From positions 2,747 through 66,746 of the forward strand of contig JAUYNJ010000001.1 in NCBI GenBank assembly GCA_030696105.1: a DNA stretch of 64,000 nt. The letters run 5' to 3'. Of the stretch, positions 7,831 through 38,611 are shown in pieces. The notes beneath the pieces are model-generated. The model had not been told where the DNA came from. It searched no databases and was given only the letters and a program-made list of their open reading frames with translations. This DNA is from a bacterium (GTDB lineage: Bacteria > Patescibacteriota > Patescibacteriia > Patescibacteriales > UBA12465). The translations under genes and the position numbers were made by a program. Position 1 is the stretch's first letter, and each line of letters starts with the position of its first letter.

Positions 7831-7844
7831 ACTTAAGCAGCAAA

Positions 7845-10209: not shown

Positions 10210-10215
10210 ATATTT

Positions 10216-12111: not shown

Positions 12112-12122
12112 AGACGCTTATT

Positions 12123-12809: not shown

Positions 12810-12814
12810 ATTTA

Positions 12815-13246
12815 TTAATTATCTTCCCCGTCGCCGCGATAGCGCCCCTTAGTGTCGACTACTAAGGCTAAATCAGCTAAATGTGATGAGCGGTATATCT
12901 CTTTCGGCTTAATACTGACTTCGGGCTTGGTAAGTGGCGCCTGCGGCATACTAACAGAATCGCCTTGCCGATGATTCCAGACACGAAGATTCGGGCGGCG
13001 GAATGTTTGCACCAAATTAAGAATGAAATAATGAAAGGGGCGTCCGTTAATTTTAATAAAAGCAAAGACAAAAGCAATAAGTGCAAAAACAATCGCGAGT
13101 GTCAGAAAAAGAGCGAAGTCAAAAATTTTATAGCTAATGCCAATCAAAGTTGCTGCCCCCAGAAAAATCAGAAACTGGCGAGTTGTAATCGGACCGATTA
13201 TCTTGCTTTCAACGTCGATAAATTGAGGAACGGTAAACTGCTGCAT
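12815..13246 (-). CDS. PrgI-family (VirB3-like) small membrane protein
   Basis: The N-terminus MQQFTVPQFIDVESKIIGPITTRQFLIF followed by two TM helices matches the PrgI-family signature as I recall it. The gene lies in the same operon as virB4, one gene upstream of it. Confidence 0.7.
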   Translation of the reverse strand: MQQFTVPQFIDVESKIIGPITTRQFLIFLGAATLIGISYKIFDFALFLTLAIVFALIAFVFAFIKINGRPFHYFILNLVQTFRRPNLRVWNHRQGDSVSMPQAPLTKPEVSIKPKEIYRSSHLADLALVVDTKGRYRGDGEDN

Positions 13247-13251
13247 ATATT

Positions 13252-14739: not shown

Positions 14740-14857
14740 GAAACAGGACAAAAAAATCCAAAAATTATTGCCAGGAAATATACTGCGGGCATTATCTTCA
14801 TTTTAGCATATTTGCTGTAGAAAGGAAAAGCCAAAATCACGATAATTTTTACCTGAA

Positions 14858-14890
14858 AAAAATATAAAACCGCCTTACAAGTGAGGCGGC
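14858..14890 (-). terminator. Rho-independent terminator separating the two T4SS-like operons
   Basis: On the minus strand the stem gccgcct/aggcggt has loop cacttgta and is followed by ttttatattttttt. Confidence 0.6.
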
Positions 14891-14914
14891 TATATTTCAG
14901 ATTTTTTACCAAGA

Positions 14915-15856
14915 TTAACGAGCAGAAACGCTAAAGCGCAGACGGTCAAGCTCTTGTCTAATCACCTTATACTCGAGGCTGCCGACCGGATAATCCTTGA
15001 GGGCAGCTTGGAGCTTAGAGGCTTCAGAATTTTGTATAACTACTTCATCACGTTCTAGTGGCAGAGGTTTTTTTGAGGTATCACTTTCCTCAACATCAGC
15101 TTGGCGGCCCAGAGGTTCAACCTCTATATCTACAGGGATTATGCTCCAAAACCTGACGGGCGTTTTATCGGTAATTTCATCAAAGTAGCTAATGTTGCGA
15201 TAGACTTTAAAAATACGCGAAAGCAATATTTTCTCAGCCGCTGACAACGATTTAGCGTTTTTAGAATTACTAATATAATTTGCCAGCACAAGATCATCAA
15301 AATAACCACTGCCGTTAAGAGCAACAAAGTCTCTTATCCAGTTCGCGACTGTCGCTTGGTGAGCGCCCTTTTCATCTATTATCTTAGAATTACTTACAAT
15401 CGTTGGGTTGCTCATAATGGCCGCCTCTAGTTCGGTCAGAAATGCAGGCTCATTCTTCAATAAATAGAAAACGTTGAGATTAAAAGACTCCGCTAAATCT
15501 TTATCGGAAATAAGTTTAAGCAAATCGTTTTTTAATGTTTCCTTCAGGCTAAGTGCATCAATTTCTTGACCAGGAGTAAACGTGGCAACTAAACGCGAAA
15601 AAACGTTTCTGGTTAATTCACGGCTCACTTCGAGTGCATCTTCTTCGCTCAAGTTTTCTTCTTTACGTAAATAGTCCGCAACTTGAGTCGCTTTAAGCTC
15701 ACCGATGCCGACTAAAATGAGCGGGAGACTCGTATTGACCCCGTATTCTAATTCAATTTCTTTGACAACAACAAGAGCTTCGGGACCACCCAAGATTTCC
15801 TTTAGACCTTGAGGTAGCTTACTAAACTTTTGTAGACATTGAGCAATATAATCCAT
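14915..15856 (-). CDS. Hypothetical protein (313 aa); N-domain paralogous to the 13252-14739 product
   Basis: The two proteins share the pattern F-x-KLP-x-x-L-x-E...P-x-A...YGV...LS-x-x-x-A...EL over roughly the first 90 aa. Confidence 0.6.
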   Translation of the reverse strand: MDYIAQCLQKFSKLPQGLKEILGGPEALVVVKEIELEYGVNTSLPLILVGIGELKATQVADYLRKEENLSEEDALEVSRELTRNVFSRLVATFTPGQEIDALSLKETLKNDLLKLISDKDLAESFNLNVFYLLKNEPAFLTELEAAIMSNPTIVSNSKIIDEKGAHQATVANWIRDFVALNGSGYFDDLVLANYISNSKNAKSLSAAEKILLSRIFKVYRNISYFDEITDKTPVRFWSIIPVDIEVEPLGRQADVEESDTSKKPLPLERDEVVIQNSEASKLQAALKDYPVGSLEYKVIRQELDRLRFSVSAR

Positions 15857-15866
15857 ATTGGTGATG

Positions 15867-18560
15867 TTATGAAGTCTTTTTATCCTCTGAAACAGAGGCG
15901 TTTAAATCCTTGGATAAATTATGAGCAACAACTTCAAGAGAAACAGGAGAAGGTTCCTTATCCCCACCAAGCATTTCCGCCGCCTTTCCCGCTTTCCCGC
16001 TTTTTAGAATCGATTTCCGTAGTAGGGTAAACCAATAAGCAAAATTTTGCGATGATGGCCCGGAATTACCAGCGTTACCAACACTCGATCGTTTGGGCAC
16101 AGCGAACTTATTCCCTAAATCATCCATTTTCTTAGTTAAGGCTTCAACTGAAACATCAAACCGAGATGAATCCAGCTCTACAAAGGAGCTGTCTCCTTTA
16201 ATTTCATCCGGTCTAACCTCTTTTTTGGGTTTATCTGCAAGAATATCATCAACAGCTTTCTTGTCCTTACGAGTATCATACTGCTTAGTTTGCATTATTT
16301 GTTCCGTTGCATAGTTTACATCATCTTCATCATGATAGCCCAAAGCATGAACCTGTTCGTGAACCACCGTATCTTTAACATCACTCAGCTTATAGTCAGC
16401 CGCGCTGGAATTAATAAGCTGCATGTTCTGCAATTCCTCTGGCTTTTCAAAACGACTCTTCGCAGTTTGCAGATTTTCTAAACGTTTCTGGTCGCCACCA
16501 CTCAAATTCGGCTGTGCCTTTAATTTAGATATTTCTTGACCCAAAATATTAACCATCTGACCGGCAATTTTTTGCATCATCGCGGGATTATTGGTATTCA
16601 AGCCCTGAGTGCCACTCCAATCAGCGGAGCCCTCAGCCTTTTCGATCTCCTTGATATTGAGTTTTTCAAAATCAACTGCCACCATATCAGATTTACCGCG
16701 AGCAAAATCATTGACCGCTAAATTGCCATTTCCTCTTGGTGCGTCTTTTTTATTAGCTTCAACTGGGGTGGTAGTATTATCCTCAATTTTTTTCTTTCGA
16801 GATTTTTTGTAATCATTCTTGTATTTACCTGTACTTTCCAGACGAGCAATTTCATCTGCTGGAAGTGGTAAACGAGATCGCCTCATATAGCTTCCAAATT
16901 CATCTTCGCCTGTAAGTGGTTCCCCTGCACGGTCAGTCCCAGGTATCGGCGAATTACCACTTAGGCTTCGTCCCCTATTATAAGCACCGCGCTCATCGGA
17001 GTTTTTTTCAATAAAAGTTTTTGCGCGACCATCTAGCACAGCGCCAGATTGACCAATCCGATGCCACTCTGGGTCTGATAATTTTTGCAAGGCTTCGCGC
17101 GACATGCCGGCTAGTTGTTCTTGAACCGCTTTCGGTGTACTTAGTGCACTGGGCATCATGTCCTGAGCCTTTGATTTAGCGGCCATTTTATCCGCACTAA
17201 AGCCACCGCTGCCTTTCGCATAGCGGGCGATTACGCGGGTATCTTTGATATCACCGATTTTCTTTTCAGCCTTATCAGAAACTACTTTCTGCGCTCGATT
17301 TAGCCCAACCAGCGAACTGGTTGCCAGCCCACGCACCCCTGTTATAGCGGCAATTTTACCAGCGACACCCGAAGATGCTGCGATAGTGCCTAAGCCTTGT
17401 TTCAAATTTGTTTTTTTTGCGATAGCTAAGCCTAGTGATCTAGAACGTCCTAAAGCAAAGCCCCCAACAGCGCCCGCCCCCATCGCGCCCAACTTGCTCA
17501 AATTACCCATGCCTTTACCGGCAATTGAACCAGCCGCACCGCCAATTTCTTGCGCAATTTTTAAACCACCAATTAACATACCGATGCCAATCACAAATTT
17601 AACCAAGGCGCCTGGCGTTGAGGCCTTCGTTTCAGCAACAGCCGCATTAGACTCACCTTTTTGACCACCAACAGCGCTGGTTTCAGCGCTTATATCGGAA
17701 TTATTAGCATCAGTAACAATATTTAGGTCGGTTCCAGTTTGCAGAGCCGCAAACGCTAACCAGATAAAGAAAGCGAGGACTGGGCCGACAATCAAGTTTT
17801 GGGTAAAATCTTTCCACCACTTAGAGGCATACTGAGCGCCGCCCGGGAAGGCCGAGAGCAGATAAGCGAGCGGTGAAAGTACCACATAAATCCAAATCAT
17901 CACAATGCGCATGGCAAGAATCATCATCATGGTCGTAAGCACCACGAGCGCGATAACCATGTAGATAAGGCCGAGTACATAGGCGCCAATAATGGTCCAA
18001 AAACCACTTCCTTCGGCGTTCTTTTCCATGGTGACTATATCGGTAATACCAAGCATGTCGATAAAATTACCGCCAGCCACATCTTTAAAAGCGTTAACAA
18101 AGGTAAGCATCACAATCTGGGCGACGTCAATCATTAAGCCGCAAATGGTTTTAGAAAAATTAATTAAAATGGCCATCAAAATTAATTTTGGTAGCCACTT
18201 TTTATAGCTATAGTTCTCAATGTGTAAAATCGTGGAGAAGGCAATGACGAGTAAAATAACGACAAAGAACATGTTCGCGATGTCGCGGACAATTACCCAG
18301 CCCTCAAGCACTGCCTGGGCACCAATAAAAGTTTGATAGCTAGCAATGAGGATGAGGCCCTTAATAACCAGGATGAGTATTAACCCTAAAGCACTAATGA
18401 AAACACCAATAATACTGCCAATAACATGCCCTGCCGTGTCACCAAAACCTGCTAGCACTGGTTGTGCAAAGATGAAACTGACGCCTACAATAAATAGTAG
18501 CCAAAGGGAATGTCGGTTGCGTTTAAAAAAATTGAGAGTTTTAATACTCATATCATTCAA
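15867..18560 (-). CDS. VirB6/TrbL-like polytopic membrane protein with a long C-terminal extension (897 aa)
   Basis: The first ~330 aa contain many TM helices. A Gly/Ala-rich segment follows, then a hydrophilic ~450 aa tail containing HEQVHALGYHD. The VirB6 call rests on topology and context. Confidence 0.55.
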   Translation of the reverse strand: MNDMSIKTLNFFKRNRHSLWLLFIVGVSFIFAQPVLAGFGDTAGHVIGSIIGVFISALGLILILVIKGLILIASYQTFIGAQAVLEGWVIVRDIANMFFVVILLVIAFSTILHIENYSYKKWLPKLILMAILINFSKTICGLMIDVAQIVMLTFVNAFKDVAGGNFIDMLGITDIVTMEKNAEGSGFWTIIGAYVLGLIYMVIALVVLTTMMMILAMRIVMIWIYVVLSPLAYLLSAFPGGAQYASKWWKDFTQNLIVGPVLAFFIWLAFAALQTGTDLNIVTDANNSDISAETSAVGGQKGESNAAVAETKASTPGALVKFVIGIGMLIGGLKIAQEIGGAAGSIAGKGMGNLSKLGAMGAGAVGGFALGRSRSLGLAIAKKTNLKQGLGTIAASSGVAGKIAAITGVRGLATSSLVGLNRAQKVVSDKAEKKIGDIKDTRVIARYAKGSGGFSADKMAAKSKAQDMMPSALSTPKAVQEQLAGMSREALQKLSDPEWHRIGQSGAVLDGRAKTFIEKNSDERGAYNRGRSLSGNSPIPGTDRAGEPLTGEDEFGSYMRRSRLPLPADEIARLESTGKYKNDYKKSRKKKIEDNTTTPVEANKKDAPRGNGNLAVNDFARGKSDMVAVDFEKLNIKEIEKAEGSADWSGTQGLNTNNPAMMQKIAGQMVNILGQEISKLKAQPNLSGGDQKRLENLQTAKSRFEKPEELQNMQLINSSAADYKLSDVKDTVVHEQVHALGYHDEDDVNYATEQIMQTKQYDTRKDKKAVDDILADKPKKEVRPDEIKGDSSFVELDSSRFDVSVEALTKKMDDLGNKFAVPKRSSVGNAGNSGPSSQNFAYWFTLLRKSILKSGKAGKAAEMLGGDKEPSPVSLEVVAHNLSKDLNASVSEDKKTS

Positions 18561-18580
18561 AAATTTATTTTACTGTCTCG

Positions 18581-19180
18581 TCAGCTCGAAAAAATTGATT
18601 CTAAAAATTGAAGACCGCTCCTTAAAGGGTTTGCAGCTACTTCAACAACCAGCGAGGGAATAATAAATGACGTTAATACGGCTACAAATAATATCAAACT
18701 GATAAGAAGTACTCCCATTGTTTCCACTGTCTTCACTTTTGCCCCGTATTTATCGCGCATCGCCTTTGTAATGCCGGGCCGATCAAACCATTCCGAACCT
18801 AAGGGGGCAAACTTGTCATCACCAAAAACATTTTTTAAAAATAAATGGGCATAGACATAAAAGAAGGATGCTCCAAAAGTAAAGGGGATATTACGATATG
18901 CGCTTATCAGAAATTTACTCGGCCCACTGCTCATGCTCTTTTTAAAAGACTGCCATCGCCCTCCCTGCTTTTCTTTTTCGGCCTGTTCTTTTCTATTTTT
19001 TACCTTGGCCCCGTACCTGGCGGCGAAATAATTCTCAGGCGGATAATTATCACCACCTTCCGCTCTTTTCTGCTCTCTCAAACTACCAGAGCGTTCCGCA
19101 CTTTCGTCGGCTTGATCATCCGGCTGCTCGTTTTGAGGTGTTGTTGCAGACGCTCGCATTAGCTGGTCATTGATAGACAT
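18581..19180 (-). CDS. Hypothetical membrane protein (199 aa), first gene of the upstream T4SS-like operon
   Basis: It has a charged, probably disordered N-terminus and C-terminal hydrophobic helices. It lies 20 nt upstream of the VirB6-like gene. Confidence 0.55.
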   Translation of the reverse strand: MSINDQLMRASATTPQNEQPDDQADESAERSGSLREQKRAEGGDNYPPENYFAARYGAKVKNRKEQAEKEKQGGRWQSFKKSMSSGPSKFLISAYRNIPFTFGASFFYVYAHLFLKNVFGDDKFAPLGSEWFDRPGITKAMRDKYGAKVKTVETMGVLLISLILFVAVLTSFIIPSLVVEVAANPLRSGLQFLESIFSS

Positions 19181-21724: not shown

Positions 21725-24700
21725 TTACTTTACCTCACTGCTTCCACCCGTGCTAGACGAAGTGCCGGTTGGGCAATTGCCGCCACTGCCACAAGAACTA
21801 CTATTTTGTGTGCAGCAATATGAGCCCCAGTTATCAGAAGCCTTTATTCTAATATCCATCAATTGATTCGAGCCTTTGTAGAAGTGATAAACGCGGTGCG
21901 GCTCACTGGCATTAGGGCGATTATTCTGATTAACAATGCTTTGCACCGAACCGTCTCCCCAGTCGATAATAAGCTCCTTCATCGGTTGCTGTTCGGGGTC
22001 AATTTTAGTATTGAAGGTCAACGTGTAAATACCAGGGTTAGGAATGCTCTGGCCACCAGATGGTATGGTGTTACCATTCAACCTGATGTTTTCAATCTTT
22101 GGCCAATTCGCGCACCAATATGCACTGTAGTTACTATCATTGCCAGTTAAGTGACTTGCATCTGAACAGGATGTATTTGTATTAACAGTCGTAATATTAT
22201 TCAAGTAATCAAGCCTATAATGTGACGGATTGGCAGTGAGGATAGAGTAGCTTCTTGTGCTCGTGCTATAGCTGTATTGAGCATAGTTTTTTAAGAACAC
22301 ATTCTTTAGAATATTCCCGGCATCATAATTAATATTGTTTACAATCTGCGACGCATTCCACAGTGGCATACAAGTTCCATTCGTGCCACAGGACTGTCTT
22401 GAGACCAGACTCTTATTCGCACTACTCGTTGGGTCGAGCACGCAGATGATATTTGGATCTAAACTGCAGAAGCCGAGATTGGAACAGCCGACACCACTAC
22501 AGCCATAAGGACGTCCACCGAAAACAGTTTGATCAATTTTTTTAGAATATTGATTGCGGAATTTAATCGGCTCACTCGCGGTAATGTTAAAGTTATCCGG
22601 GAAGGTGGCTGCGCCAAAAGGAATAAGGTCACGATTGCGACCAAACAGGGAGAAGCTGTAACTATTTGTTGCTGGAATAGCGCCAGGAGTTCCGCAGATA
22701 GATTCACCAGTGGTTACCTCATACTTCATACAATCGCCAACGTTCTGACAAGAAGGATGATAGCAAGTATCACCTAGAACTTCATCACACTCACAGCCAT
22801 TGCCGCAAGAACACCACTCTGCGCAATTACCTCCAATAGTCTCCTTATAACAAGATTCGCCGTAATAGGTTGTCGCATCACGGAAGAAGAGTGGCGTGGT
22901 CAGGGGATATGCGCTATTCTTACTTGTTCGTGCAGCCCAGGCCTTATTATTCCCCATCGAATCAACGACTTGCACAAACTTGCTACAGGTTGGGTAGAAT
23001 ACTTCATCTGGATTTGAGGAAGATAAAAGCTTCAGCTGTGATTCATCGGCCGGTGGATTATTGAAGTCGTATACGCGAACTGCTGGATCTGCAGTCTTTA
23101 ATTGATCAAGGTTGCCACCTTTATTCTTTGAAATTCCATTATAAGGGTACCAGCCGCTATATCCAGAGACGTCAAAAGTGAAGCCATAATTACTACTCGC
23201 AAAAATATCAACCGGGCCAGATGCAATTAGCCTGCCCACTTTATTAGGAATACAAAAGACATCAAATTTATCCCAACCGACAGCAAATAAAACAAAATAA
23301 TCAAAATTATTTTTTTTATCAGGCTCGCAGTATCGACGAATTGATAGCCGGTCAACATAATCGCCGACATGCTTTTCGCCAAAAGCTACATAGTTTTGCG
23401 CACAATAATTATCTTTCTTAGCTTCATTTTCATAATAACAAAGGAAATAATCACTATTATCATCGAAGTCTTTAGAGTACACTCTTTGAGCCGCCCGCTT
23501 CTCCACTAGCGTAAAGTTACCATCCGCCTCAACACAATAGTTTAAGGGGAAGGCTCCTTGATAACCGAGATTAGAGCGAGCAGATTTAGCGCCCGCACTG
23601 ATTTCGTCAATCGGATACCACATCAGACAAACATTCTTATTCGCTGGATCGTGCTGCAAACAATAGCCATAGAGGCCATCGCGGATAACCTGACTATTCT
23701 TACTAATACAGAAAGCAGCGTCTTGGGTTGGATATAGACGACACTCTTTAGCAATATACTGACTCGCTGAACTTGAACTACCGGGACTAACTTTTAGTAC
23801 AGGCTCAATATTTATATCATCAAAATACACATATCGTTCCTCGAGTGTATTTGAATTGACGCCGACATAAATAATGATAGAGTCGACAGTTGTTAGAGAA
23901 GTTTTGGGTATTTTCACTACTTTTCTTTCCCAACCATTAGGAGCGCTAATTGCCTGAGAAATTACATCAGTCTTAGTAGCGGCATTTACGATACGTACAA
24001 AGGCTGATAAACCCGAGTCCTTAGTGTTCACGAGGAAGTTGAGATAATAATCTTGCTTTCTAACAATATTTATCGGTGAGTTTTCCGAGTGTGGCGAAAT
24101 TAACTGACCCGACATTACCTTTAAGTAAGCTTTGCCCTCTGCTGGATAATCGGTCGGCGCATTATTCGGTGAATTAACAATACTGTCAGCCACGATGCCA
24201 TTATCAAATTTACACTCACCATCAGTGACCGTTTTACAAGTTAGATTTGGACTGCCCTCCTCAAAATTAAAGTGGGCATCGGTATTTAAGCCAACCTCAA
24301 CCATACTACTTAAATCAAGTTGATTTAAGAGCGAGTAACCAGTCGCCTTTGCGACGTCACTCGTTTCCTGATTAAGCTCAGCGTTAAGTCCCTTAACGAA
24401 GTTTGTACATTCATTATTATCACCTAGACGATTACACTCGCCGATGGAGAAGCAGGTGCGTTCATTAGTTTCGGGGTCAACAATGTAGGTCTGACAATCA
24501 AGCCAAGTCGCACATACGCGATCAGGGCGAACTTTAATTAATTTGTTAGCCGAGCAATTACCGGTCGTGCAAGCAGCCGGTGATTGACCGTTGAAACTTG
24601 CAGCCGCGTTCCACCAACCACTAAGAGGCAAATAGCCACTGGCGCCATTCACCGAGCGTTCGTTAAATAAGATACAGCCGTTATCTGCATTCACAATACC

Positions 24701-27700
24701 ATTACAGCTAGACTGATCGACTTGTTGTTTTAGTTGATAGCTGGTAATTGCCTCGCGCACAACAACTTCATAACTACCAGTGCTGCGACTGATAGTAGCG
24801 GCGTTGTTGCCCCGAGAGTAGAAGGTGAGGCGAGTAGTCGGTGAGGCGGCGGGAATAATCAAGGTGTTAACAGCTGTAGTTGTTAATTCATTATTGCCCT
24901 GCAAGAGCGCTACGCCCGCATCAAAAGTCAAGCGAACATCGCCCGTGCTCAGACTTGTCTCACTTGTGGTCAGTGAGAAGATATGTAAAGTGTTGGGGTC
25001 GATGGTAAAGCGCTGCTCACGTTTGCCGGTAGCATTATTTGTCTGCCAACCGTTATAAGGAGTCAGGCTCGGATTAAAAATTAAATTCGGCGAATGAGTA
25101 CTTACCGGATCAATGTATTCAGTGCAGCCTGAAGATTTCGCTTCACACAAACCAGCGGCTTCGCTTGGCACTGGAACCTGCTGTCCGCCGCCACCGTAAC
25201 CGATAGTTTCTAGGTAGGAAACGCTACAGTCGTAATCGTTATTATCAACTAAGCACGGTCTGTTGCCGGCACAATCGGCAGCGGAAGAACAAACCGACCC
25301 GCTTCTTTCTAAAGCCGTACCAATGCTGCCGTTATTATTAATGTCGCAGCGCATCACTGGTACTTTATACCAGTTCTTACCTGGACGAGAAGGATCCGTG
25401 CTAGCGCGATAGACACAAGCGTTATTGCCGGGATTCTTAAAGTAACTCATTCCGCCTTCGTCTGTGCGCCAGGCTTCACAGCCGGCATCACCCTCCTCAC
25501 AAAGAATTTGATTATAAGTATCAGGGTCATTACGTTTAAAGACGTCGCTCCAGACAGTATTTGTGCCCGATGAAGAGGACTCACCTAAGCGTGAACAGCC
25601 GGCATCGGCGCCATTACAACGTTTACTTTCATCAAAGATAGCGTAAATAAATTTATCTTTTGGCACACTAATACATTCGGTTTCATTGGAGTCACAAACA
25701 CCGTTCTCATTTGTGTCTTTCCAGACCTCGGCATTGAAGTTATCGGAATTAGCCGTATCAACCATTAGTTCACAACCAACGGCTGAGTCCTGACAAAGAC
25801 GATTAAACTGTCGTAAATAATGAGTTTTTCTAGCTCGATCAAGATACTGACTACAGCCAAGATTATAGTCCTCGCCCTGATAGTTATTCAGCATATCGTA
25901 ATAACAGATATCAGGAATCTTGCTGCTACCCTTAATGAGATAGTAGCGGCTATTAATAGCCGTAAGAACGATATTATCAATGTAGAAATCAGCATTAGAC
26001 ACAATTACCAATGACTCATTGGCCGTGACAGCATGATTTAACTCCGCCAAATTTACTTCATAGGTGCGCCATTCATTATTACCGCTCACCGTGATAGCCC
26101 CAGTAGTATTATTTTCACTGGCGTTGAAGTAAACGATTTCATCGTTTGCATTTAAGAAAGCAAAGCTGACATTGGTCGCAGTAGCAGCGCTCGCGGTGAA
26201 TTTAAGAGAATACGCACTTCCCTGCGTGAGCTTGGAGCCCAGTACTTTTTGAATATAGGAAGCCGGGGCAGCGTTAGCACTGTTACCAAGGATTTTATCT
26301 AAGAACGAGACCTGTCCTGTTGGCTCACAACTTGTCTGATGTTGAACGCCACCGGAATTAGCGCCGCGATCATAGAATAATGACTTACCATTGTTAGTGC
26401 TTGCAGATTGAGAAAGTAAAGCGGCGTCACCGCAACGTCCTTCCCAGCCATCGAGACCATTTTCGAAATTAAAAGCAGATACTAACTTAGTATTGTTTCC
26501 CAAGCTGCCATTATACTCACGGCAACCGTTTTGCGCGGCTGTACATTTCTTACCTTCGTTTGGTATCGCTGAATAAATACAAGATTGATACTCAGTGCTC
26601 CAAGTGCCGCCATTCTGACAAGAATAACAAACTGAACCAGCAGCATTCCAAGAACGACTTGGGCCAGTACACTGCGCCTGAGTTAAGGTCGTGTCGATGT
26701 TTTTTTCAGTCTGACGATAGGTGTGACAATCCTCTGAGCAGGTTATCGTCGAAGCGGATAAATGATATGAAATCGCACCAGCCTTATTGTAATACTGGCG
26801 ACAATCGGCATTGAAGCCGGGATCGGTAACAGGTAGGTTGAAAATTGCCTCATTACATGAAGCGGAGTCATCGACGGTAACGGCCGGATTGTTGCTAGCG
26901 TCCTTTTTCAATACTAAAGCTTTGAGTTGATAACCATTCTCGTCATTACCAACCCAAGTGTAAAAGTCGGCGCAATCGGCTCCCGGCTTAATACACTGTT
27001 TTAATTGAGTGTAATATTCTCTCGTTTCTCCACCGCTCGCAGCTGCGTCGAGATTAGTGAACTCAGTGCAACCAGCGGCTGCAGCACCACACTTCTGACT
27101 ATTAGCCGGAATAATTTTATCAGCGTAGGGCGAGAAAAAATAACTGCTACGGGCTACATAAACATTGTAACCATTACAGCTCGCATCACAATAATCAGCC
27201 GACACCGCTTGGGCGGCAACTGAGAAACCAGACGCAGTTTGTGTGTACCGTTCACACCCAGCCTCATCACGGTTACACAAACGTGCGAAATCAGCGCAAG
27301 CGACCGGTGCATCGGCGCGTAGGCGATAGTCGGGACTTGTTGGATTAGTACTAACATAACAAACAGGAGCGAGATAAGGCGGAATTAGTTTTTCATAAGC
27401 ACGATATGAACCATACAATGAAAAGCCTGAGTCCCATGGATTCATTTCTAATTTAATATTTCTCACCGCAAAGCGGGCCTGATTCGTGTTACCGTAATTG
27501 GTGATTCCTAAAGTCATTTCGGAGAGCGGCTTGTCTTTCAAGCTGCGAGTTACTGATAAGTGTCTCCAAACTCCCTTGTCTTTTGTTTCAGCGGCGACTA
27601 GGTAATCACCTCCCAGCACAAGGTGTACTTTTTCACCTTCAATTAAATAAACATCCGCACTGAAAGTATAAGTTTCACCCGATAATAAGTTAAGGCCGGT

Positions 27701-30031
27701 TGGAATTAATGAAACTGCATTATTTGAGTAAAGACCGATGGTTGTAGAAGCATTGCCACTGTTACCAATAGACTCAATTAATAAGACCTTACCTGAGGAA
27801 GTGGTATCAAGTGTCTGCGCATCAATAATAGAAGCGGCCTTATTGCGCGTTGACCAAATTGGCCAATAGCCATTAACCAAACTATCAACCATGGTGTCGC
27901 CAATGTTGTCCCTCACAAAACCGGCGCCCATGATGAGATTTGCACCCCAGCCTGGCTTGGCTCTGAGTAATTCGGTACAACCTTCGTCACGAGGAGAACA
28001 GCCAGACATCTTATTATTGAAATAAGAGGTTACCGCCGGTATTCCTGACCAGCTGACTTGCCCCGTTGAAGTGGCGTAAGTTCCAAATACAGAGTAAAGC
28101 TTACAACCAACGGAGTCAGCACTGCAACCAGCAAAATCTAAAGTATTTTCTAAATATGAAACACTTTGCCCGCTTGTCGAATTTACAAATGAAGTACAAG
28201 TATTATTAATCGGCGAACATGATTTTGAGTCAAATGACCAAGTCTGGCGTTCAGATTGACAGTAGCCATAGGCTTCACAACTACCATCTTCTTTTTCCTT
28301 GATACAGGTTTGTTCATCAGCACAATAATCACCAGCGCGGGTAATGAGCACGGTCTCATCATTAACGCCGCTAGTAAAATTATTACCTGGAACAACGCTA
28401 ATATCTAAAATTTGACCGCTGTAGCCTTGCTTCGCACAATAATTCAGAGGAGCTTTGAGTACCCAGTTTGGATCAACCAAGCCTCGACACCAGGTCTGAC
28501 TTTGAATATTAAAAGTTGAGGAGTATTCATTGTATTGATCAACATCGCTAAAACAGGACATCAAGTCACCGAGCGTCGCTGTCTTGCCGGAGGCGGCCGC
28601 TACTTCCCAGCCGACTGATATTAAACGATACTTCCTCATGATTTGTAGATTACGGAGGTTATATGCTCCTTCACGATATTCGGAGGTGACGAGCCAATCT
28701 TTACGCAAATACCCTTCACGTATCGCTTCTGCAACTGTTTTCTTTTCAGTAATACCTTCCATCAACTGATCATCAATAACGCACTCGGTCGGTCCAGGGT
28801 TATTTCGATCACGACAGATAGTAAGGGCTGATAAAATATTATAATCGGCGCGCACGCTGAAATTTGGTTCAATTATTTGTGCCAAGCTCTCTTTAACTGA
28901 CTTCTCGCCGTAGACAACGTTAGGGTCAGTAGACCGGTTATTACTACCCGCACTTGTGTTATCAGTTGCTGTTTTGCCAAGGTTGCTCATCGCTTTCTTA
29001 AACGCAGTAAGAGCGAGCTGATTTAAAAAGACATTAGCGGCATCAATTAAGGCGTCACCCGAAAAGGTCGCCATGTTTGAGATATATCCTTGTTGAGCTA
29101 ACTCAGATTGAAGTTTGCTATCACCAGGGATGCTCTTTAAGTTACCGGCAATATTACGAACATCAAGCCAGCCTCCGTTCGCTGTAAGTTGAGTTTTAGA
29201 AGTGTCTTTATCAATAACAACTTTTTCCTGCATACCGGCGCGCAAAGACATGTAAATACCAAGGTCGTTTGAAACAGGGTTAAAGATACCTTTAAACTCA
29301 TCAAGAAAATCAATACGCCTAATCGACGATTCCCAATTATCAACTAGCTTCGTGGCCGAACAATTTGGTGCTTGCGGACGTTTATAGTCAACCAGACCAA
29401 GAGTAATTTTAAGTTTTGCTTCTAAGGATGATGGCTGGCAAACAGAGATATTTGAGCTAGCAGTTTTAGTTGCAGTCTTTGTTGTTGACGTGTCTGAAAA
29501 AATATTACTAACACAGCTTGTTTGCTCCCTAAAACAATTGGTATTACATTGATGGTCGGGATTACCCACGCAAGCCTGACCGCACAACTTAAAGGCAGTA
29601 TTACAGCTTTCTTCCGCGGCTTCTTTGCTCCGCGTTTCCGCAGCTGAATTCGCCCAATTCTTCACGGCCCCTTCAATAAACTCACCGGCCGCTTCATCTC
29701 CTATCTGGGCCAAATAATCTCCCCAGCCTTGAGTTACGAATAAGGGTTTCTGTCCTTCATTACCAGAGCCAATCCAGGTCGCCGTATCAAAGGCAATTTT
29801 ATTTAAAGCCGAGCGTGTTGCTTTTTGAAATGCAGCCGCACCTCCTTTTTCATAGGCTTTTTTCACAAAAGCCCATATTGGCGTCAGGATATTGTTTACT
29901 GCCTGATTAAAATCGGTAAAAGCATGAGCTTCTTTAGGTGCTGAGAGGGTTGAAAACACCAATATGCACAAAAAAGCCACGGCTATCCCCAAACGGCGCC
30001 GATTTATAACGGAATTGAATCTCTTATTCAT
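21725..30031 (-). CDS. Giant secreted Cys-rich surface protein (~2,768 aa from the ATG at 30031; the ORF is open to 30133)
   Basis: The signal peptide is RRRLGIAVAFLCILVFSTLSAPKEAHA. It has dozens of cysteines and a recurring GC-x-E/R-aromatic motif, and segments such as FENGLDGWEG look like CBM-type domains. The segment IDWGDGS...HRVYHFY near the C-terminus looks PKD-like. Confidence 0.85.
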   Translation of the reverse strand: MNKRFNSVINRRRLGIAVAFLCILVFSTLSAPKEAHAFTDFNQAVNNILTPIWAFVKKAYEKGGAAAFQKATRSALNKIAFDTATWIGSGNEGQKPLFVTQGWGDYLAQIGDEAAGEFIEGAVKNWANSAAETRSKEAAEESCNTAFKLCGQACVGNPDHQCNTNCFREQTSCVSNIFSDTSTTKTATKTASSNISVCQPSSLEAKLKITLGLVDYKRPQAPNCSATKLVDNWESSIRRIDFLDEFKGIFNPVSNDLGIYMSLRAGMQEKVVIDKDTSKTQLTANGGWLDVRNIAGNLKSIPGDSKLQSELAQQGYISNMATFSGDALIDAANVFLNQLALTAFKKAMSNLGKTATDNTSAGSNNRSTDPNVVYGEKSVKESLAQIIEPNFSVRADYNILSALTICRDRNNPGPTECVIDDQLMEGITEKKTVAEAIREGYLRKDWLVTSEYREGAYNLRNLQIMRKYRLISVGWEVAAASGKTATLGDLMSCFSDVDQYNEYSSTFNIQSQTWCRGLVDPNWVLKAPLNYCAKQGYSGQILDISVVPGNNFTSGVNDETVLITRAGDYCADEQTCIKEKEDGSCEAYGYCQSERQTWSFDSKSCSPINNTCTSFVNSTSGQSVSYLENTLDFAGCSADSVGCKLYSVFGTYATSTGQVSWSGIPAVTSYFNNKMSGCSPRDEGCTELLRAKPGWGANLIMGAGFVRDNIGDTMVDSLVNGYWPIWSTRNKAASIIDAQTLDTTSSGKVLLIESIGNSGNASTTIGLYSNNAVSLIPTGLNLLSGETYTFSADVYLIEGEKVHLVLGGDYLVAAETKDKGVWRHLSVTRSLKDKPLSEMTLGITNYGNTNQARFAVRNIKLEMNPWDSGFSLYGSYRAYEKLIPPYLAPVCYVSTNPTSPDYRLRADAPVACADFARLCNRDEAGCERYTQTASGFSVAAQAVSADYCDASCNGYNVYVARSSYFFSPYADKIIPANSQKCGAAAAGCTEFTNLDAAASGGETREYYTQLKQCIKPGADCADFYTWVGNDENGYQLKALVLKKDASNNPAVTVDDSASCNEAIFNLPVTDPGFNADCRQYYNKAGAISYHLSASTITCSEDCHTYRQTEKNIDTTLTQAQCTGPSRSWNAAGSVCYSCQNGGTWSTEYQSCIYSAIPNEGKKCTAAQNGCREYNGSLGNNTKLVSAFNFENGLDGWEGRCGDAALLSQSASTNNGKSLFYDRGANSGGVQHQTSCEPTGQVSFLDKILGNSANAAPASYIQKVLGSKLTQGSAYSLKFTASAATATNVSFAFLNANDEIVYFNASENNTTGAITVSGNNEWRTYEVNLAELNHAVTANESLVIVSNADFYIDNIVLTAINSRYYLIKGSSKIPDICYYDMLNNYQGEDYNLGCSQYLDRARKTHYLRQFNRLCQDSAVGCELMVDTANSDNFNAEVWKDTNENGVCDSNETECISVPKDKFIYAIFDESKRCNGADAGCSRLGESSSSGTNTVWSDVFKRNDPDTYNQILCEEGDAGCEAWRTDEGGMSYFKNPGNNACVYRASTDPSRPGKNWYKVPVMRCDINNNGSIGTALERSGSVCSSAADCAGNRPCLVDNNDYDCSVSYLETIGYGGGGQQVPVPSEAAGLCEAKSSGCTEYIDPVSTHSPNLIFNPSLTPYNGWQTNNATGKREQRFTIDPNTLHIFSLTTSETSLSTGDVRLTFDAGVALLQGNNELTTTAVNTLIIPAASPTTRLTFYSRGNNAATISRSTGSYEVVVREAITSYQLKQQVDQSSCNGIVNADNGCILFNERSVNGASGYLPLSGWWNAAASFNGQSPAACTTGNCSANKLIKVRPDRVCATWLDCQTYIVDPETNERTCFSIGECNRLGDNNECTNFVKGLNAELNQETSDVAKATGYSLLNQLDLSSMVEVGLNTDAHFNFEEGSPNLTCKTVTDGECKFDNGIVADSIVNSPNNAPTDYPAEGKAYLKVMSGQLISPHSENSPINIVRKQDYYLNFLVNTKDSGLSAFVRIVNAATKTDVISQAISAPNGWERKVVKIPKTSLTTVDSIIIYVGVNSNTLEERYVYFDDINIEPVLKVSPGSSSSASQYIAKECRLYPTQDAAFCISKNSQVIRDGLYGYCLQHDPANKNVCLMWYPIDEISAGAKSARSNLGYQGAFPLNYCVEADGNFTLVEKRAAQRVYSKDFDDNSDYFLCYYENEAKKDNYCAQNYVAFGEKHVGDYVDRLSIRRYCEPDKKNNFDYFVLFAVGWDKFDVFCIPNKVGRLIASGPVDIFASSNYGFTFDVSGYSGWYPYNGISKNKGGNLDQLKTADPAVRVYDFNNPPADESQLKLLSSSNPDEVFYPTCSKFVQVVDSMGNNKAWAARTSKNSAYPLTTPLFFRDATTYYGESCYKETIGGNCAEWCSCGNGCECDEVLGDTCYHPSCQNVGDCMKYEVTTGESICGTPGAIPATNSYSFSLFGRNRDLIPFGAATFPDNFNITASEPIKFRNQYSKKIDQTVFGGRPYGCSGVGCSNLGFCSLDPNIICVLDPTSSANKSLVSRQSCGTNGTCMPLWNASQIVNNINYDAGNILKNVFLKNYAQYSYSTSTRSYSILTANPSHYRLDYLNNITTVNTNTSCSDASHLTGNDSNYSAYWCANWPKIENIRLNGNTIPSGGQSIPNPGIYTLTFNTKIDPEQQPMKELIIDWGDGSVQSIVNQNNRPNASEPHRVYHFYKGSNQLMDIRIKASDNWGSYCCTQNSSSCGSGGNCPTGTSSSTGGSSEVK

Positions 30032-30071
30032 AATTTTTTTCTGATATTTTTTCCGCAAACAAAAAATAAAA

Positions 30072-30695
30072 CTATTCTTCTCCGCCCTGTTCAACAAGCA
30101 TTGCTTGATACGAGGCAATGAGCTCTTCATCACTTAATGAATTTAATATTTCAGCACTAACACCACTATCAAGTAATAGTGAGCGCAGTAAACTAGCGTC
30201 AGCCTGTCCAGACATCATGAGTTGCAAAGTGTCTTCATCAGCGCTATCGGTATTAATTTGAATTGGCTCAGGAATTAAATCGTTGACCGTGCTTGTCGCT
30301 TGCGCAATAACACCTAGATCACAAGCAGTGCCGGCAGCACAATTTGGATCAGCACCTCTTTCAATTTCCTCGCGATCGCTAATACCATCACTATCAGAAT
30401 CGGCTAAATATGGTGAGGTGCCGTAGAGATTAATCTCTTCATAATCAGTCAGGCCATCACCGTCTGTATCAACATCACTTAAAGCGATTTGAAAATCTTC
30501 TAGACTTGAGGTCGGCGCTTCAACAACCTGAAAAGGACGAGTAATTTTATCATTGAACTGCCAAACCCAAAAAATAAAAACGCCCAGACTGAGAGCGGAC
30601 AGGAGCAAAAAAGCAGTCCGTTGCGGTCTGGGTAAACTCTGTAAAAATGAGGCATGAGACTCATCTTTTAATGGTTCTTGAAAATCGTTAGGCAT
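30072..30695 (-). CDS. Membrane-anchored protein with thrombospondin type-3-like calcium-binding repeats (207 aa)
   Basis: It has a TM helix (AFLLLSALSLGVFIFWVW). The repeats are DVDTDGDGLTDYEE and DSDSDGISDREE. Confidence 0.65.
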   Translation of the reverse strand: MPNDFQEPLKDESHASFLQSLPRPQRTAFLLLSALSLGVFIFWVWQFNDKITRPFQVVEAPTSSLEDFQIALSDVDTDGDGLTDYEEINLYGTSPYLADSDSDGISDREEIERGADPNCAAGTACDLGVIAQATSTVNDLIPEPIQINTDSADEDTLQLMMSGQADASLLRSLLLDSGVSAEILNSLSDEELIASYQAMLVEQGGEE

Positions 30696-34847: not shown

Positions 34848-35600
34848 ATGAGCCTAGATGAACGCATTGAATATTTAGAAATGAAAAATCGACATCAGAA
34901 AAAACTCCGACCTTGGTATAAAAAAACCTGGGGGGTTTTGGTGATAATTGTCGGAATATTAGCAATTTGCTTCATTATCGCCGGCTCCATATACGTGGCT
35001 CAGCAAGTACAAGCCATCAGGTCACAGGAAAGTGCTGATTTAGAAGCTAAGGAAATCGCCAAGATTACAGCAGCTATTGACGGACGTGGCGAAAGCTACA
35101 GCCTTGGGCCAATTGACGCAAAAGTGCAAATTGTTATCTTCTCCGACTTCGCCTGCCCTTACTGCCAACAAGCCGCACCAGTGGTGCGCCGTTTGGCTGA
35201 TAAATACAAGCAGGATGTGCGCTTCACCTTCCGAAATTATTTCTTCCACAACAATTCAATCGGTCTTGCCTTGGCTGCAAATTGCGCTGGAGAACAAGGA
35301 CGCTTCTGGGAAATGCATGACATCATTTTCGAAAGACAGGACTCATATAGCTCACTTAACGATGATAGCGTTAAAGAACCAATGAAAGCCTTAGCAGCGG
35401 AACTTAAGTTTGATACCAATCAATTCAAAGCCTGTCTTGATGATAAGAAATATCTTTACCGTTTAAATGACGACTTTACCGATGCTGAAATTTTAGGATT
35501 ACAAGGTACACCATCTTGGTTTATTAATCGCTACAAAATAACTGGATTTTATCCAGAAGAAAATTTCATTAACGTTATCGAAGGACTCATCGCAAAATAA
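34848..35600 (+). CDS. Membrane-anchored DsbA-family thiol:disulfide oxidoreductase
   Basis: It has an N-terminal TM helix and a thioredoxin-fold active site FSDFACPYCQQ. The C-terminal GTPSWFIN is typical of DsbA-like proteins. Confidence 0.8.
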   Translation: MSLDERIEYLEMKNRHQKKLRPWYKKTWGVLVIIVGILAICFIIAGSIYVAQQVQAIRSQESADLEAKEIAKITAAIDGRGESYSLGPIDAKVQIVIFSDFACPYCQQAAPVVRRLADKYKQDVRFTFRNYFFHNNSIGLALAANCAGEQGRFWEMHDIIFERQDSYSSLNDDSVKEPMKALAAELKFDTNQFKACLDDKKYLYRLNDDFTDAEILGLQGTPSWFINRYKITGFYPEENFINVIEGLIAK

Positions 35601-36443: not shown

Positions 36444-37580
36444 ATGAAGATTAGTTTTTTAGAGGGATCACGCGCAATCGCGCAAACAGTTGCCAACATC
36501 AAACCTGAGGTTGTTTCTGCTTACCCAATTACTCCCCAAACACACATTGTTGAAGATCTTGCCCGCTTCAAAGCTGAGGGCAAAGCTGATTATGAATACT
36601 TACTCGCCGAAAGCGAAGCAGCCGCAGCATCAATTGTGTTAGGAGCCAGTGCGGCTGGCGCCCGTGTTTATACGGCGACGAGTTCACAGGGATTATTACT
36701 CATGCTTGAAGTTTTGTATAACGCCTCCGGTCTGCGCTTACCCCTTGTCATGACCGTCGCCAATCGCGCAGTTGGTGCTCCGATTAATATCTGGAACGAC
36801 CATAGCGACGCCATGGCGATGCGTGATGCCGGCTGGGTAATGTTGTTTGCCGAAAATCATCAGGAGGCAGTTGATCTGCATGTAATTGCTTACCGACTGG
36901 CTGAAAGCACGAATTTGCCAGTTGCCGTTAATGTCGACGGCTTCATTTTAACGCACTCACACGAAAACGTTATTGTTCCTGATAATAAAACGATTAAAAA
37001 GTTTTTACCTGACTACAGACCTGCTGCTGGCACTTTCTTAGACCCGCAAAATCCTAGCACCATCGGCGGCTTCTTTACACCTGAACATTTCTGGTTAGAG
37101 CGCCAGCGTCTTGATACAGATTTAAAAAAGTCTCTACCCTTAATTAGCAACTTATATAAGCAATGGAAAAAAATATTGCGAACCCCTACGCCCTCAAAAA
37201 TTAATTTTGATAACGGCTTAGTAGAATATTGCGGACCTTCTCACCCAGAAACACTGATTATCGCGATGGGCTCGATGGCAGGCACAATTAAAGAAACAAT
37301 TAGAGACAATAAAAATGTTGGCTTGCTTAAAATCAGAAGTTTCCGCCCCTTCCCTGATCTTAGAAAGTTTACGTCTACCTGTAAACGTATCGCTGTGATT
37401 GAAAAAGCGATGTCGAGTGGCGCAAGCGGTCCTTTGTTCGCAGAGGTCGGCTCTTCACTGTCTAATTACAAAGGGGTTATTAGCGACAATATAGTTGGCC
37501 TCGGCGGTCGTGATGTTAGTTTACAAACAATTAAGCATATTATTAAATCATCCGGCAAAGCGGGGGTTAAATTTTGGTAA
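36444..37580 (+). CDS. porA: 2-oxoacid:ferredoxin oxidoreductase, alpha subunit
   Basis: The YPITPQT motif, the 378 aa length and the operon context support the call. Confidence 0.9.
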   Translation: MKISFLEGSRAIAQTVANIKPEVVSAYPITPQTHIVEDLARFKAEGKADYEYLLAESEAAAASIVLGASAAGARVYTATSSQGLLLMLEVLYNASGLRLPLVMTVANRAVGAPINIWNDHSDAMAMRDAGWVMLFAENHQEAVDLHVIAYRLAESTNLPVAVNVDGFILTHSHENVIVPDNKTIKKFLPDYRPAAGTFLDPQNPSTIGGFFTPEHFWLERQRLDTDLKKSLPLISNLYKQWKKILRTPTPSKINFDNGLVEYCGPSHPETLIIAMGSMAGTIKETIRDNKNVGLLKIRSFRPFPDLRKFTSTCKRIAVIEKAMSSGASGPLFAEVGSSLSNYKGVISDNIVGLGGRDVSLQTIKHIIKSSGKAGVKFW

Positions 37581-37585
37581 ACGCT

Positions 37586-38611
37586 ATGAAGCTAAAACAA
37601 ATCATTTCCTACGTAAGTTTACTGGCCTGGCCCCTCACATTTTTTTTACCTAAACTTGCGCACGCCGATATCAAAGACCCGCTTGTTTTCGAGCCCCAAG
37701 TCGGTTTGCCGGGACTTCTCAGCGCAACGACGACCATGTCTCGCAGTGATACTAGCTACATCGGTCAGCTCGCTAAGGGATTTTATGATTACGGCTTAGC
37801 CATTGGTGGCATACTCGCCGCTATTATGCTCATGGCTGGTGGTGTTATCTGGCTCACCTCGGCGGGTAGCAGTGATGCTGTCTCTAAAGCCAAAGGTTTA
37901 ATTTCCGGCAGCATCGCTGGCCTGGTCTTATTATTCGGTGCCTGGTTTATGTTGAATACAATTAACCCGGCCCTAATTAATCTAGAGGTTCAAGAGATAA
38001 GCGCTATTAGACGAATCTCAAATATTTGCTGTGAATACCGAGAATCTGGCTCCAGCAAAGCCCTAAATACTCTTTCTAATGACTGTGAGAAAAAAAACGG
38101 AACAGCCTACACTAGTGATGCTAACGGCACTTATATTGCTGGGGCGACTAAATGTATGTATACAAAAATAAGCTGCAGTATACAAAAAGATTGTGAAGGC
38201 AATGCCAAGAAATGCTTTGACTCCGATGTCCAGCAAACAGAAAGACAAAAGTGTGGCAGTAATTTTGTCGACCTATACGATTTCAAAGAAGGTCGTTGTG
38301 GTAATCATCCAGAATGTAAGAATTTGATTGCCAGCTGTACCGGGACTGTAAATGGAGATAAATGCAAAACAATAGATGGCGGAGACTGGTATTTCCTCTG
38401 GATTAATGGTGTTAAAGTGCCAGGCTATTGCTACAACACCATGTGTTATATTGGCACAGCGAAAGAAGGGGAATCATGTGGCACAAAGCCGGGCGCGGGT
38501 TGCTACAGCCTAACTTGCAGCAACCTAGGCCAAGCTGGACAGACATATTACAGAGATAACAGTAGTGGTCGTGATTGCGGCACAAATTTGTACTGCTGTT
38601 ATAAAGAATAA
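37586..38611 (+). CDS. Secreted protein with a T4SS-pilin-like (TrbC/VirB2-type) hydrophobic hairpin and a C-terminal domain of 20 cysteines
   Basis: The signal peptide is MKLKQIISYVSLLAWPLTFFLPKLAHA. The hairpin is GLAIGGILAAIMLMAGGVIWLTSAGSSDAVSKAKGLISGSIAGLVLLFGAWFMLNTINP. It is followed by ~195 aa containing 20 Cys. Confidence 0.7.
   Translation: MKLKQIISYVSLLAWPLTFFLPKLAHADIKDPLVFEPQVGLPGLLSATTTMSRSDTSYIGQLAKGFYDYGLAIGGILAAIMLMAGGVIWLTSAGSSDAVSKAKGLISGSIAGLVLLFGAWFMLNTINPALINLEVQEISAIRRISNICCEYRESGSSKALNTLSNDCEKKNGTAYTSDANGTYIAGATKCMYTKISCSIQKDCEGNAKKCFDSDVQQTERQKCGSNFVDLYDFKEGRCGNHPECKNLIASCTGTVNGDKCKTIDGGDWYFLWINGVKVPGYCYNTMCYIGTAKEGESCGTKPGAGCYSLTCSNLGQAGQTYYRDNSSGRDCGTNLYCCYKE

Follow-up and report, generated by a model that had tools for sequence, protein, structure and literature searches.

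We analysed a 64,000-nucleotide stretch (hereafter the window) of contig JAUYNJ010000001.1 from assembly GCA_030696105.1, positions 2,747 to 66,746, and concentrated on a giant gene which encodes a cysteine-rich secreted protein of 2,768 amino acids in this member of the Patescibacteriota. The gene is paired with that of a small membrane protein carrying thrombospondin type-3 (TSP3) repeats, and in some related genomes it continues in an operon-like manner into the genes of a type IV secretion system (T4SS). Our preferred explanation, to which we give an even chance of being right, is that a disulfide-rigidified extracellular scaffold with domains resembling carbohydrate-binding modules (CBM), oxidised by a DsbA-like protein and tethered by the TSP3 partner, represents the “host-contact arm” of the T4SS-like apparatus of Falkowbacteria.

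The open reading frame (ORF) of the giant gene can be read from two starts. Its long form (21725..30133, minus strand) begins with GTG and encodes 2,802 residues, and a first-pass annotation, made from the letters alone, had described a 62-nucleotide overlap of this form with the partner gene. The arithmetic of the overlap is right for the GTG form; the start itself is unsupported. It adds 34 residues which correspond to the partner’s 3' end and an A/T-rich spacer, while the ATG at 30031 leaves a gap of 40 nucleotides after the partner’s TAG. Since a protein deposited from a metagenome-assembled genome (MAG) has exactly 2,768 residues and equals the ATG form (100% identity over 100%), and since the homologs share an N-terminus in which the Met opens a signal peptide with an MNK/MK n-region, we took ATG 30031 as the start and rejected the GTG start together with its overlap.

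From this Met the translation opens with MNKRFNSVINRRRLGIAVAFLCILVFSTLSAPKEAHA, followed behind the cleavage site by FTD, which is a classical signal peptide. Among 117 aligned homologs, an N-terminal hydrophobic segment is present in 112 and an A-x-A-like cleavage site (AHA before F in the window protein) in 111; a further transmembrane-like segment, a lipobox or a C-terminal transmembrane-like segment of the sortase-anchored type was found in none of the 117. In the last 60 residues, LPXTG is absent from the giant protein, and an LPXTG-like string occurs in one of the 117 homologs. Judged from these features, the giant protein is Sec-exported without a membrane or wall anchor of its own, in agreement with the first-pass reading, and its mature form of about 2,730 residues is best explained as an extracellular scaffold.

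The very high cysteine content noted earlier is evident: the protein has 107 Cys (3.87%, versus 0.93% in the 38 other window ORFs), 106 of which remain once the signal peptide is removed. The recurring short module proposed for it, GC-x-E/R-aromatic, is not a product of composition, and all ten instances quoted for it are present. The pattern GC.[ER][FYWLM] occurs six times against 0.12 expected, and GC..[FYWLM] 12 times against 1.4; neither count was ever reached in 2,000 composition-preserving shuffles. Both patterns go back to a Cys pair at i,i+7, with 16 observed, 3.2 +/- 1.75 expected and a maximum of 11 in 5,000 shuffles. The module may be written as C-x5-G-C-x-E-[YF], and its 13 copies lie between residues 605 and 1640 at positions fixed across the family. 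Pooling the 13 copies over 117 homologs gives the consensus C-[SND]-[AS]-x-[AED]-x-G-C-x-E-[YF], which we regard as a putative, previously undescribed short disulfide hairpin module.

Curated Cys-repeat families do not cover it: no NCBIfam family matches the giant protein at E <= 0.01 and no Cys-repeat family of Pfam matches its segments at E <= 1. Myxococcus-type cysteine-rich repeats were likewise not recovered, the protein matching no curated repeat model of NCBIfam or Pfam. Large internal repeats were considered and rejected: when 12 segments of the family alignment were compared by hhalign, no match exceeded 20% probability, and BLAST gave no self-hits; the repeats of the giant protein are thus short hairpins only.

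The giant gene belongs to a broad family. A word-indexed search returned 293 relatives, and among the best 120 of these nearly all are 2,630–2,955 residues long, colinear over 77–99% of the query and 38–79% identical to it. An exhaustive hidden Markov model (HMM) search with a profile of the N-terminal part (residues 38–700) collected, at E <= 1e-3, 1,386 clusters (50% identity), of which 1,075 had E <= 1e-30; the best 150 of the 1,386 have E <= 1e-142, and the full-length ones among them comprise about 2,400–3,040 residues. All relatives among the best 120–150 of these searches are close members of the giant family. In a pattern scan of GTDB species representatives, at least 223 genomes had the gene, and all those with informative names are Falkowbacteria. 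By the names of its homologs, the window itself is assigned to Candidatus Falkowbacteria within the Patescibacteria. Public records label many MAGs with the giant gene “uncultured Gammaproteobacteria bacterium” and one “Bacillota bacterium”, probably by default or by mistake.

The gene is intact in 60 of the 65 loci not cut by a contig end, and four of the five shorter versions contain runs of N; no frameshifts were seen, and we reject decay or pseudogenisation. The strain-to-strain comparison of module number suggested in the first-pass annotation showed fixed positions, so that variation in the number was also rejected. Given this constancy among relatives, the protein is to be regarded as a constrained scaffold and not as a repeat-expanding adhesin. 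In the alignment of 117 sequences, conservation is 90% or higher for 84 of the 107 Cys and 95–100% for those of the core (residues 570–1640), and 83% of the homologs have an even number of Cys. Conservation is higher in the Cys-rich segments (0.63–0.71) than in the β-sandwiches (0.47–0.54), a contrast which, at the level of sequence, fits a fixed framework presenting faster-evolving domains. Compared with the proteins of the window, relatives have a median identity of 43% in the giant protein, 67% in LeuRS, 83% in VirB4, 41% in the DsbA-like protein and 28–30% in the products of g313 and g199, two genes of the T4SS-like block. Such rates would suit a structural protein that is extracellular and constrained; they do not discriminate between the models discussed below.

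The domain anatomy starts with an N-terminal region (residues 38–405) for which no homology to anything known was detected. Its first part (residues 38–142) is conserved, Cys-poor and predicted to be helical, with the near-invariant motif ALNKIAYDTA..GSGxxGQKPLF..IGDEAAG; it is followed by a variable 8-Cys knot (residues 143–224) and by a second conserved, Cys-free part (residues 225–405). AlphaFold2 (AF2) models, based on alignments of 29 sequences, place helices in this region with a predicted local distance difference test score (pLDDT) below 50 over most of it. Farther along, Cys-rich stretches alternate with Cys-free inserts of about 130–190 residues (approximately 701–890, 1201–1375, 1646–1775 and 1909–2095), each modelled as a β-sandwich. 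A variable region which precedes the C-terminal domain includes a 10-Cys insertion (sequence beginning CYKETIGGNCAEWCSCGNGCECDEVLGDTCYHPSCQNVGDC) found in a minority of homologs, and one homolog (P0113) lacks the 8-Cys knot. These two cases suggest that, in a few places, the scaffold can gain or lose entire Cys modules.

The CBM-like character ascribed earlier to the segments FENGLDGWEG and NFEEGSPN is supported by both profile and fold. On jelly-roll 2, Pfam CBM_4_9 (PF02018) matches residues 1261–1327 with 27.2 bits, above its gathering cutoff of 25.9 (E = 5.5e-6), and the same family matches all 18 homologs scanned, with a best E of 3e-11. In Foldseek, sandwich 1 resembles CBM4-2 (3jxs, 2y6j), CBM16 and CBM61 with target-normalised template-modelling scores (TM-scores) of 0.59–0.65 and probability 1.00, and CBM22 is found as well; with a second AF2 model, CBM-type jelly-rolls again dominate the matches. 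For jelly-roll 4, the family profile weakly matches the CBM of a hyaluronate lyase in the PDB (E = 0.039). According to the profiles and models, the protein has at least three predicted CBM4/9-like jelly-rolls and a fourth β-sandwich, set within the more conserved Cys-rich scaffold. Compared with known CBM4/9 modules, the likeness extends to superposition of the modelled sandwiches on CBM4-2, CBM16 and CBM61, whereas those of the giant protein are not attached to any glycoside hydrolase; they are candidate binders by sequence and fold. The PKD-like unit proposed near the C-terminus (residues ~2690–2720), which falls in the conserved C-terminal domain of Table 1, was not recovered: PKD has no match at E <= 1 in residues 2560–2768, none in the 18 homologs at E <= 0.05 and none at E <= 1 in a search of the PDB with the family profile, and we have discarded it.

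A toxin- or effector-like role directed at the host, in which a multi-jelly-roll architecture similar to Cry protoxins or reelin binds and damages its targets, is suggested by the best multi-domain Foldseek matches, namely Cry1A protoxins, Vip3 and receptor-binding domains of binary toxins. However, these alignments have TM-scores of about 0.1 and root-mean-square deviations above 30 Å, and they stem from common jelly-rolls in a model of low confidence. Pfam detects no catalytic, pore-forming or other enzymatic domain in the giant protein and no catalytic domain in the 18 homologs, and the protein carries a signal for Sec export, not one for the T4SS, so that we hold this role to be very improbable. 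Since the matches to reelin repeats, Cry1A protoxins and Elapor1 have a global TM-score of about 0.09 in a low-confidence model, they represent an architectural analogy only. Reelin is also a very large secreted protein in which CBM-like jelly-rolls alternate with small disulfide modules, but its identity to the giant protein is 8–9% and the Cys modules of the latter are not EGF domains.

The giant gene has a dedicated partner. A homolog of the 207-residue gene lies directly upstream on the same strand in all 73 loci with room for it, and the distance from its stop to the giant start is -8 to +41 nucleotides in the loci where gene starts were read, on account of which we consider the two an obligate gene pair. 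The membrane anchor and the TSP3-like repeats attributed to the partner were both recovered. Pfam TSP3_bac (PF18884), for which the cutoff is 25, scores 35.6 bits (E = 8e-9) over two repeats, which are putatively calcium-binding, and 68 of the 73 aligned orthologs have two repeats. The partner may tether the giant protein to the cell surface.

Its presence bears on another use of the same jelly-rolls, a secreted polysaccharide-binding scaffold for nutrient capture, serving to scavenge glycans from the environment or a host and not for attachment between cells. Three or four CBM4/9-like jelly-rolls, the lack of an anchor in the giant protein itself and the CBMs of glycoside hydrolases among the top structural neighbours are what one would expect of such a scaffold. 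Nevertheless, the invariable presence of a membrane-anchored partner argues for cell association, no catalytic domain was detected in the 2,768 residues or in the 18 homologs, and an 8.3-kb gene, which takes up about 0.85% of a genome of about 1 Mb, is a heavy cost for a passive binder. We consider nutrient capture improbable.

The preferred reading, a host-contact arm, depends on the link to the T4SS genes. The order partner–giant–g199–VirB6–g313–g499–VirB3–TraC-like–VirB4 recurs in relatives down to E ~1e-150, and the order from the giant gene to the T4SS genes is also kept in two members that rank low among the matches listed. Downstream of the giant gene, relatives have a VirB6-like gene in 53 of 56 loci with room and g199 in 50 of 59. 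The 897-residue protein of the window is called VirB6-like because its ortholog in a relative matches TrbL_3. In the complete chromosome CP066698.1 (locus L035), the partner, the giant gene, a g199-like gene, a VirB6-like gene and the next gene are joined by junctions of -1 to 7 nucleotides. In another locus (L040), everything from the partner through VirB4 lies on one strand with gaps of at most 160 nucleotides. In both, the giant gene is only 6–11 nucleotides from T4SS genes on the same strand. The giant gene is therefore contiguous and co-oriented with virB4, virB3 and virB6 in some relatives and belongs to their cluster there. The T4SS link is thus tighter than a reading of the window alone could show, and so are the links to the partner, found in every locus with room, and to the frequent DsbA-like gene described below.

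The position resembles that of known adhesin genes. In plasmid pCF10, the surface adhesin genes prgA/B/C lie just upstream of prgH (VirB6), prgI (VirB3) and prgJ (VirB4) in one operon. Like the PrgB/Asc10 adhesins of that plasmid, a Gram-positive conjugation system of the MPF-FATA class, the giant protein is large and Sec-exported, and its gene stands just upstream of those for VirB6-, VirB3- and VirB4-like proteins within a single cluster. Contact with a target cell is proposed for it as well, and the T4SS of Patescibacteria are phylogenetically closest to this class (PMC12102498). It differs in having no sequence or profile similarity to PrgB/Asc10 and no LPXTG wall anchor, in being Cys-rich, which PrgB is not, in its roughly twofold size, and in being tethered, if at all, by a separate transmembrane partner.

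Two further features of the window concern cysteine. A DsbA-like gene, which like the T4SS-like cluster had been recognised at first pass, lies upstream and divergent of the giant gene in 56 of 59 loci with room; its product also gives a weak TraF match, and it is probably the oxidant for exported Cys-rich proteins. Apart from the giant gene, only two ORFs of the window stand out in Cys, both exceeding 4%, and these encode the exported VirB2-like pilin-domain proteins, which are paralogous in the pilin domain. One (37574–38611) has 20 Cys (5.8%); the other (39460–40785) has 19 (4.3%), with a T4SS_pilin match just under the Pfam cutoff and a weak, sub-threshold NLPC_P60 match. Their interleaving with genes for pyruvate:ferredoxin oxidoreductase (POR) subunits is also seen in relatives L001–L003.

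A comparable combination is known from TraN of F-like plasmids, a T4SS-encoded, Cys-rich protein which binds the partner cell surface and whose folding needs disulfide oxidoreductases encoded with or near the system. The giant protein is likewise Cys-rich and exported, with a DsbA-like protein weakly resembling TraF nearby. TraN, in turn, is an outer-membrane protein of diderms with about 600 residues; no homology was detected, and Falkowbacteria are presumed to be monoderm.

Taking these features together, we suppose the following scenario. Outside the cell, oxidation would turn the 106 Cys left in the mature protein into about 53 disulfides, about 42 of which would be conserved in the family, and a rigid, conserved framework would be built from the 13 C-x5-G-C-x-E-[YF] hairpins together with other Cys clusters. 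This framework would display four faster-evolving β-sandwiches, at least three of the CBM4/9 jelly-roll type. The co-translated partner, with its transmembrane segment, two TSP3 repeats and a conserved C-terminal helix, may hold the scaffold at the cell surface, and the two proteins might represent the adhesion, or host-contact, arm of a chromosomal, relaxase-less T4SS-like machine. The arm would bind glycans of the host envelope and so keep the secretion apparatus and the Cys-rich VirB2-like pilins against the host.

One can go farther and propose, tentatively and with more doubt than for the scenario itself, that the giant protein and its TSP3 anchor are the missing extracellular working end of the relaxase-less T4SS of Patescibacteria. 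It would be a disulfide-rigid glycan-binding arm which places the Cys-rich VirB2-like pilins, or else the channel, at the envelope of the host, similar to VirB5, PrgB and TraN in function and unrelated to them in origin, and it would be lineage-defining and probably indispensable for the host association of Falkowbacteria.

Several observations weigh against a host-contact arm. In the window, the giant gene is separated from the T4SS-like block by 2.5 kb, which contain a lipoprotein gene with its own promoter and, on the other strand, a GluRS gene. KsgA (68 of 68 loci), LeuRS and the DsbA-like gene are as syntenic as the T4SS genes, so that adjacency alone is no proof of a link. Searches of Pfam, NCBIfam and the PDB yielded CBM-like matches alone and no homology to T4SS components or adhesins already known, and folds of the CBM type also serve as structural modules without binding. 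Outside the β-sandwiches the AF2 models, with mean pLDDT of 52.5 and 58.5, are too poor to show the shape of the scaffold. The protein, whose identity is close to that of the DsbA-like protein, does not demonstrate the hypervariability typical of host-range determinants, and both an epibiont lifestyle of Falkowbacteria and their host are hypothetical.

Some of these observations would be accommodated by a general structural protein of the envelope or surface layer, i.e. a rigid disulfide coat or spacer, whose adjacency to the T4SS genes is merely an inherited gene order. The equal synteny of the housekeeping neighbours is consistent with this, as are the uniform moderate conservation, fixed length and apparent single copy of the giant gene and the unrelated contents of its junction with g199, which in relatives takes GluRS, AspRS, RNHCP, a lipoprotein gene or nothing. 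Such a coat does not account for the two loci in which the giant gene almost touches same-strand T4SS genes, nor for the Cys-richness which in the window is common to the giant protein and the T4SS pilin-domain proteins only. S-layer proteins, moreover, are not usually Cys-rich or as large as the giant protein. We regard this explanation as unlikely, though the most serious of the alternatives. Because general gene-order conservation is high, three observations carry the T4SS link of the preferred host-contact arm: in some genomes the genes are packed like an operon, the high Cys content is shared, and the position parallels that in pCF10.

The literature gives this arm a context. Quinonero-Coronel et al. 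(2025) demonstrated that the T4SS of Patescibacteria are related to the monoderm MPF-FATA systems, mostly lack relaxases and often have VirB2-like pilins (PMC12102498). Their survey detected no PrgB-like adhesins in Patescibacteria and does not mention the giant gene (PMC12102498). Wang et al. (2023) showed that the Saccharibacterium Southlakia epibionticum cannot grow as an epibiont without the T4SS, its pilins and several surface proteins which bind polysaccharides (PMC10633639), and reviews call the role of the Patescibacteria T4SS unknown. Large Cys-rich extracellular proteins, multi-copy and strain-variable, were described in Peregrinibacteria by Anantharaman et al. (2016), who suggested a role in attachment (PMC4736985). 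The giant protein shares with these candidate phyla radiation (CPR) proteins a signal peptide, a length above 1,500 residues, several percent Cys, the presence of a disulfide-forming enzyme and the suggested attachment (PMC4736985). By description it is set apart from them, being apparently single-copy, fixed in length and module number, located in a T4SS cluster and provided with a dedicated TSP3 partner.

By analogy, then, the giant protein may be placed conceptually among T4SS-associated adhesins and Cys-rich surface proteins of the CPR. By sequence, its family is uncharacterised, homology to adhesins or T4SS parts already known being undetectable, and we found no description of it in the literature. 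Widespread in Patescibacteria and devoid of conjugation parts, the T4SS is essential in the only species tested, and no adhesin for it was detected in the published survey. A giant, strongly conserved protein with sugar-binding-like domains and a dedicated anchor inside the T4SS cluster across a candidate phylum is therefore a concrete candidate for the contact which these ultra-small cells make via the T4SS. Its uncharacterised family comprises more than 1,000 clusters at 50% identity, and the gene could serve as a marker for Falkowbacteria.

Table 1. Features of the window relevant to the giant gene, with the evidence for each
Feature	Position	Strand	Evidence or remark
T4SS-like block	9598..19180	-	Pfam P-loop_TraG and PrgI; transmembrane scan; TrbL_3 and TraC-like matches on orthologs in relatives
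Bitopic protein, 203 residues	9598-10209	-	Transmembrane scan
VirB4	10216-12111	-	Pfam P-loop_TraG
TraC/TrsD-like, 228 residues	12123-12809	-	TraC-like match on orthologs
PrgI/VirB3	12815-13246	-	Pfam PrgI
g499, 499 residues	13252-14751	-	
g313, 313 residues	14915-15856	-	
VirB6-like, 897 residues, seven N-terminal transmembrane segments	15867-18560	-	Ortholog matches TrbL_3
g199, 199 residues	18581-19180	-	
Lipoprotein gene, 153 residues, lipobox LMSC	21174-21635	-	Would be driven by the promoter at 21692-21720
Sigma-70 promoter, TTGACA-17-TATAAT	21692-21720	-	12/12 consensus; immediately after the giant gene’s stop
Giant gene, Cys-rich secreted protein, 2,768 residues	21725..30031	-	ATG at 30031, stop codon 21725-21727; ORF list and translation
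Conserved C-terminal domain, residues 2651-2740	21812..22081	-	Invariant W-x-D ... P-H-x-x-Y-H-x-Y ... D-N-W columns
10-Cys insertion, residues 2394-2446	22694..22852	-	In ~15-20% of homologs; per-Cys conservation 0.14-0.21, gap fraction 0.79
Predicted jelly-roll 4, residues ~1909-2095, from near NFEEGSPN	23747..24307	-	AF2 pLDDT 74-92; Pfam CBM_4_9_1 weak, E = 0.13
Predicted β-sandwich 3, residues ~1646-1775	24707..25096	-	AF2 strands, pLDDT 67-87; no family hit; least conserved of the four, 0.47
Cys-rich core, residues 570-1640, 13 hairpin modules, broken by jelly-rolls 1 and 2	25112..28324	-	Motif and spacing statistics, family consensus
Predicted jelly-roll 2, residues ~1201-1375, from FENGLDGWEG	25907..26431	-	Pfam CBM_4_9; AF2 pLDDT 77-86
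Predicted jelly-roll β-sandwich 1, residues ~701-890, CBM4-like	27362..27931	-	AF2 pLDDT 70-89; Foldseek; Pfam CBM_4_9 weak, E = 0.064
N-terminal region, residues 38-405	28817..29920	-	Conservation profile; 0 Pfam hits at E <= 1
Signal peptide, residues 1-37	29921..30031	-	n-region, hydrophobic core, cleavage between AHA and F; hydrophobicity scan
Partner gene, 207 residues: transmembrane segment at residues 27-45 (N-in), two TSP3 repeats, small C-x5-C loop, conserved C-terminal helical motif	30072..30695	-	Pfam, transmembrane scan, alignment
DsbA-like oxidoreductase, transmembrane-anchored, CPYC	34848..35600	+	Pfam Thioredoxin_4 and DSBA; transmembrane scan
Two Cys-rich VirB2-like pilin-domain proteins	37574..40785	+	Pfam T4SS_pilin; interleaved with POR genes

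The flanking genes of the giant gene are housekeeping ones (GluRS, KsgA, LeuRS, Exo/endo/phosphatase and RNA polymerase). On the other side of the T4SS-like block, beyond the gene for the bitopic protein, RadA and then RecG are encoded; in class ABY1, the T4SS adjoins recG, radA and comF (PMC12102498). The strong promoter noted at first pass ahead of the lipoprotein gene is indeed present. By BLAST this lipoprotein gene is found in only three of 83 related loci, and it is thus an apparent recent insert between the giant gene and the T4SS-like block.

Within the T4SS-like block, the products of g499 and g313 share a paralogous N-terminal domain of about 75 residues (31% identity, E ~3e-7); neither has a family match, and both genes are among the fastest-evolving of the cluster. 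In one related locus of 28 kb (L084), the giant gene and the T4SS cluster are flanked by small genes matching 23S_rRNA_IVP (7721–8092 and 23031–23393), with one weak match to bAvd, a family which includes accessory proteins of diversity-generating retroelements; no reverse transcriptase gene was found in this locus.

At the edge of the window, the segment 1–4265 has a low G+C content (35%, versus about 43% for the window) and abuts tRNA-Ser (4176–4265). It contains genes for a Rep-type initiator (1094–2047, with REP_ORF2-G2P and RepSA matches) and a large serine recombinase (2701–4230), and by these features it looks like a small integrated mobile element.

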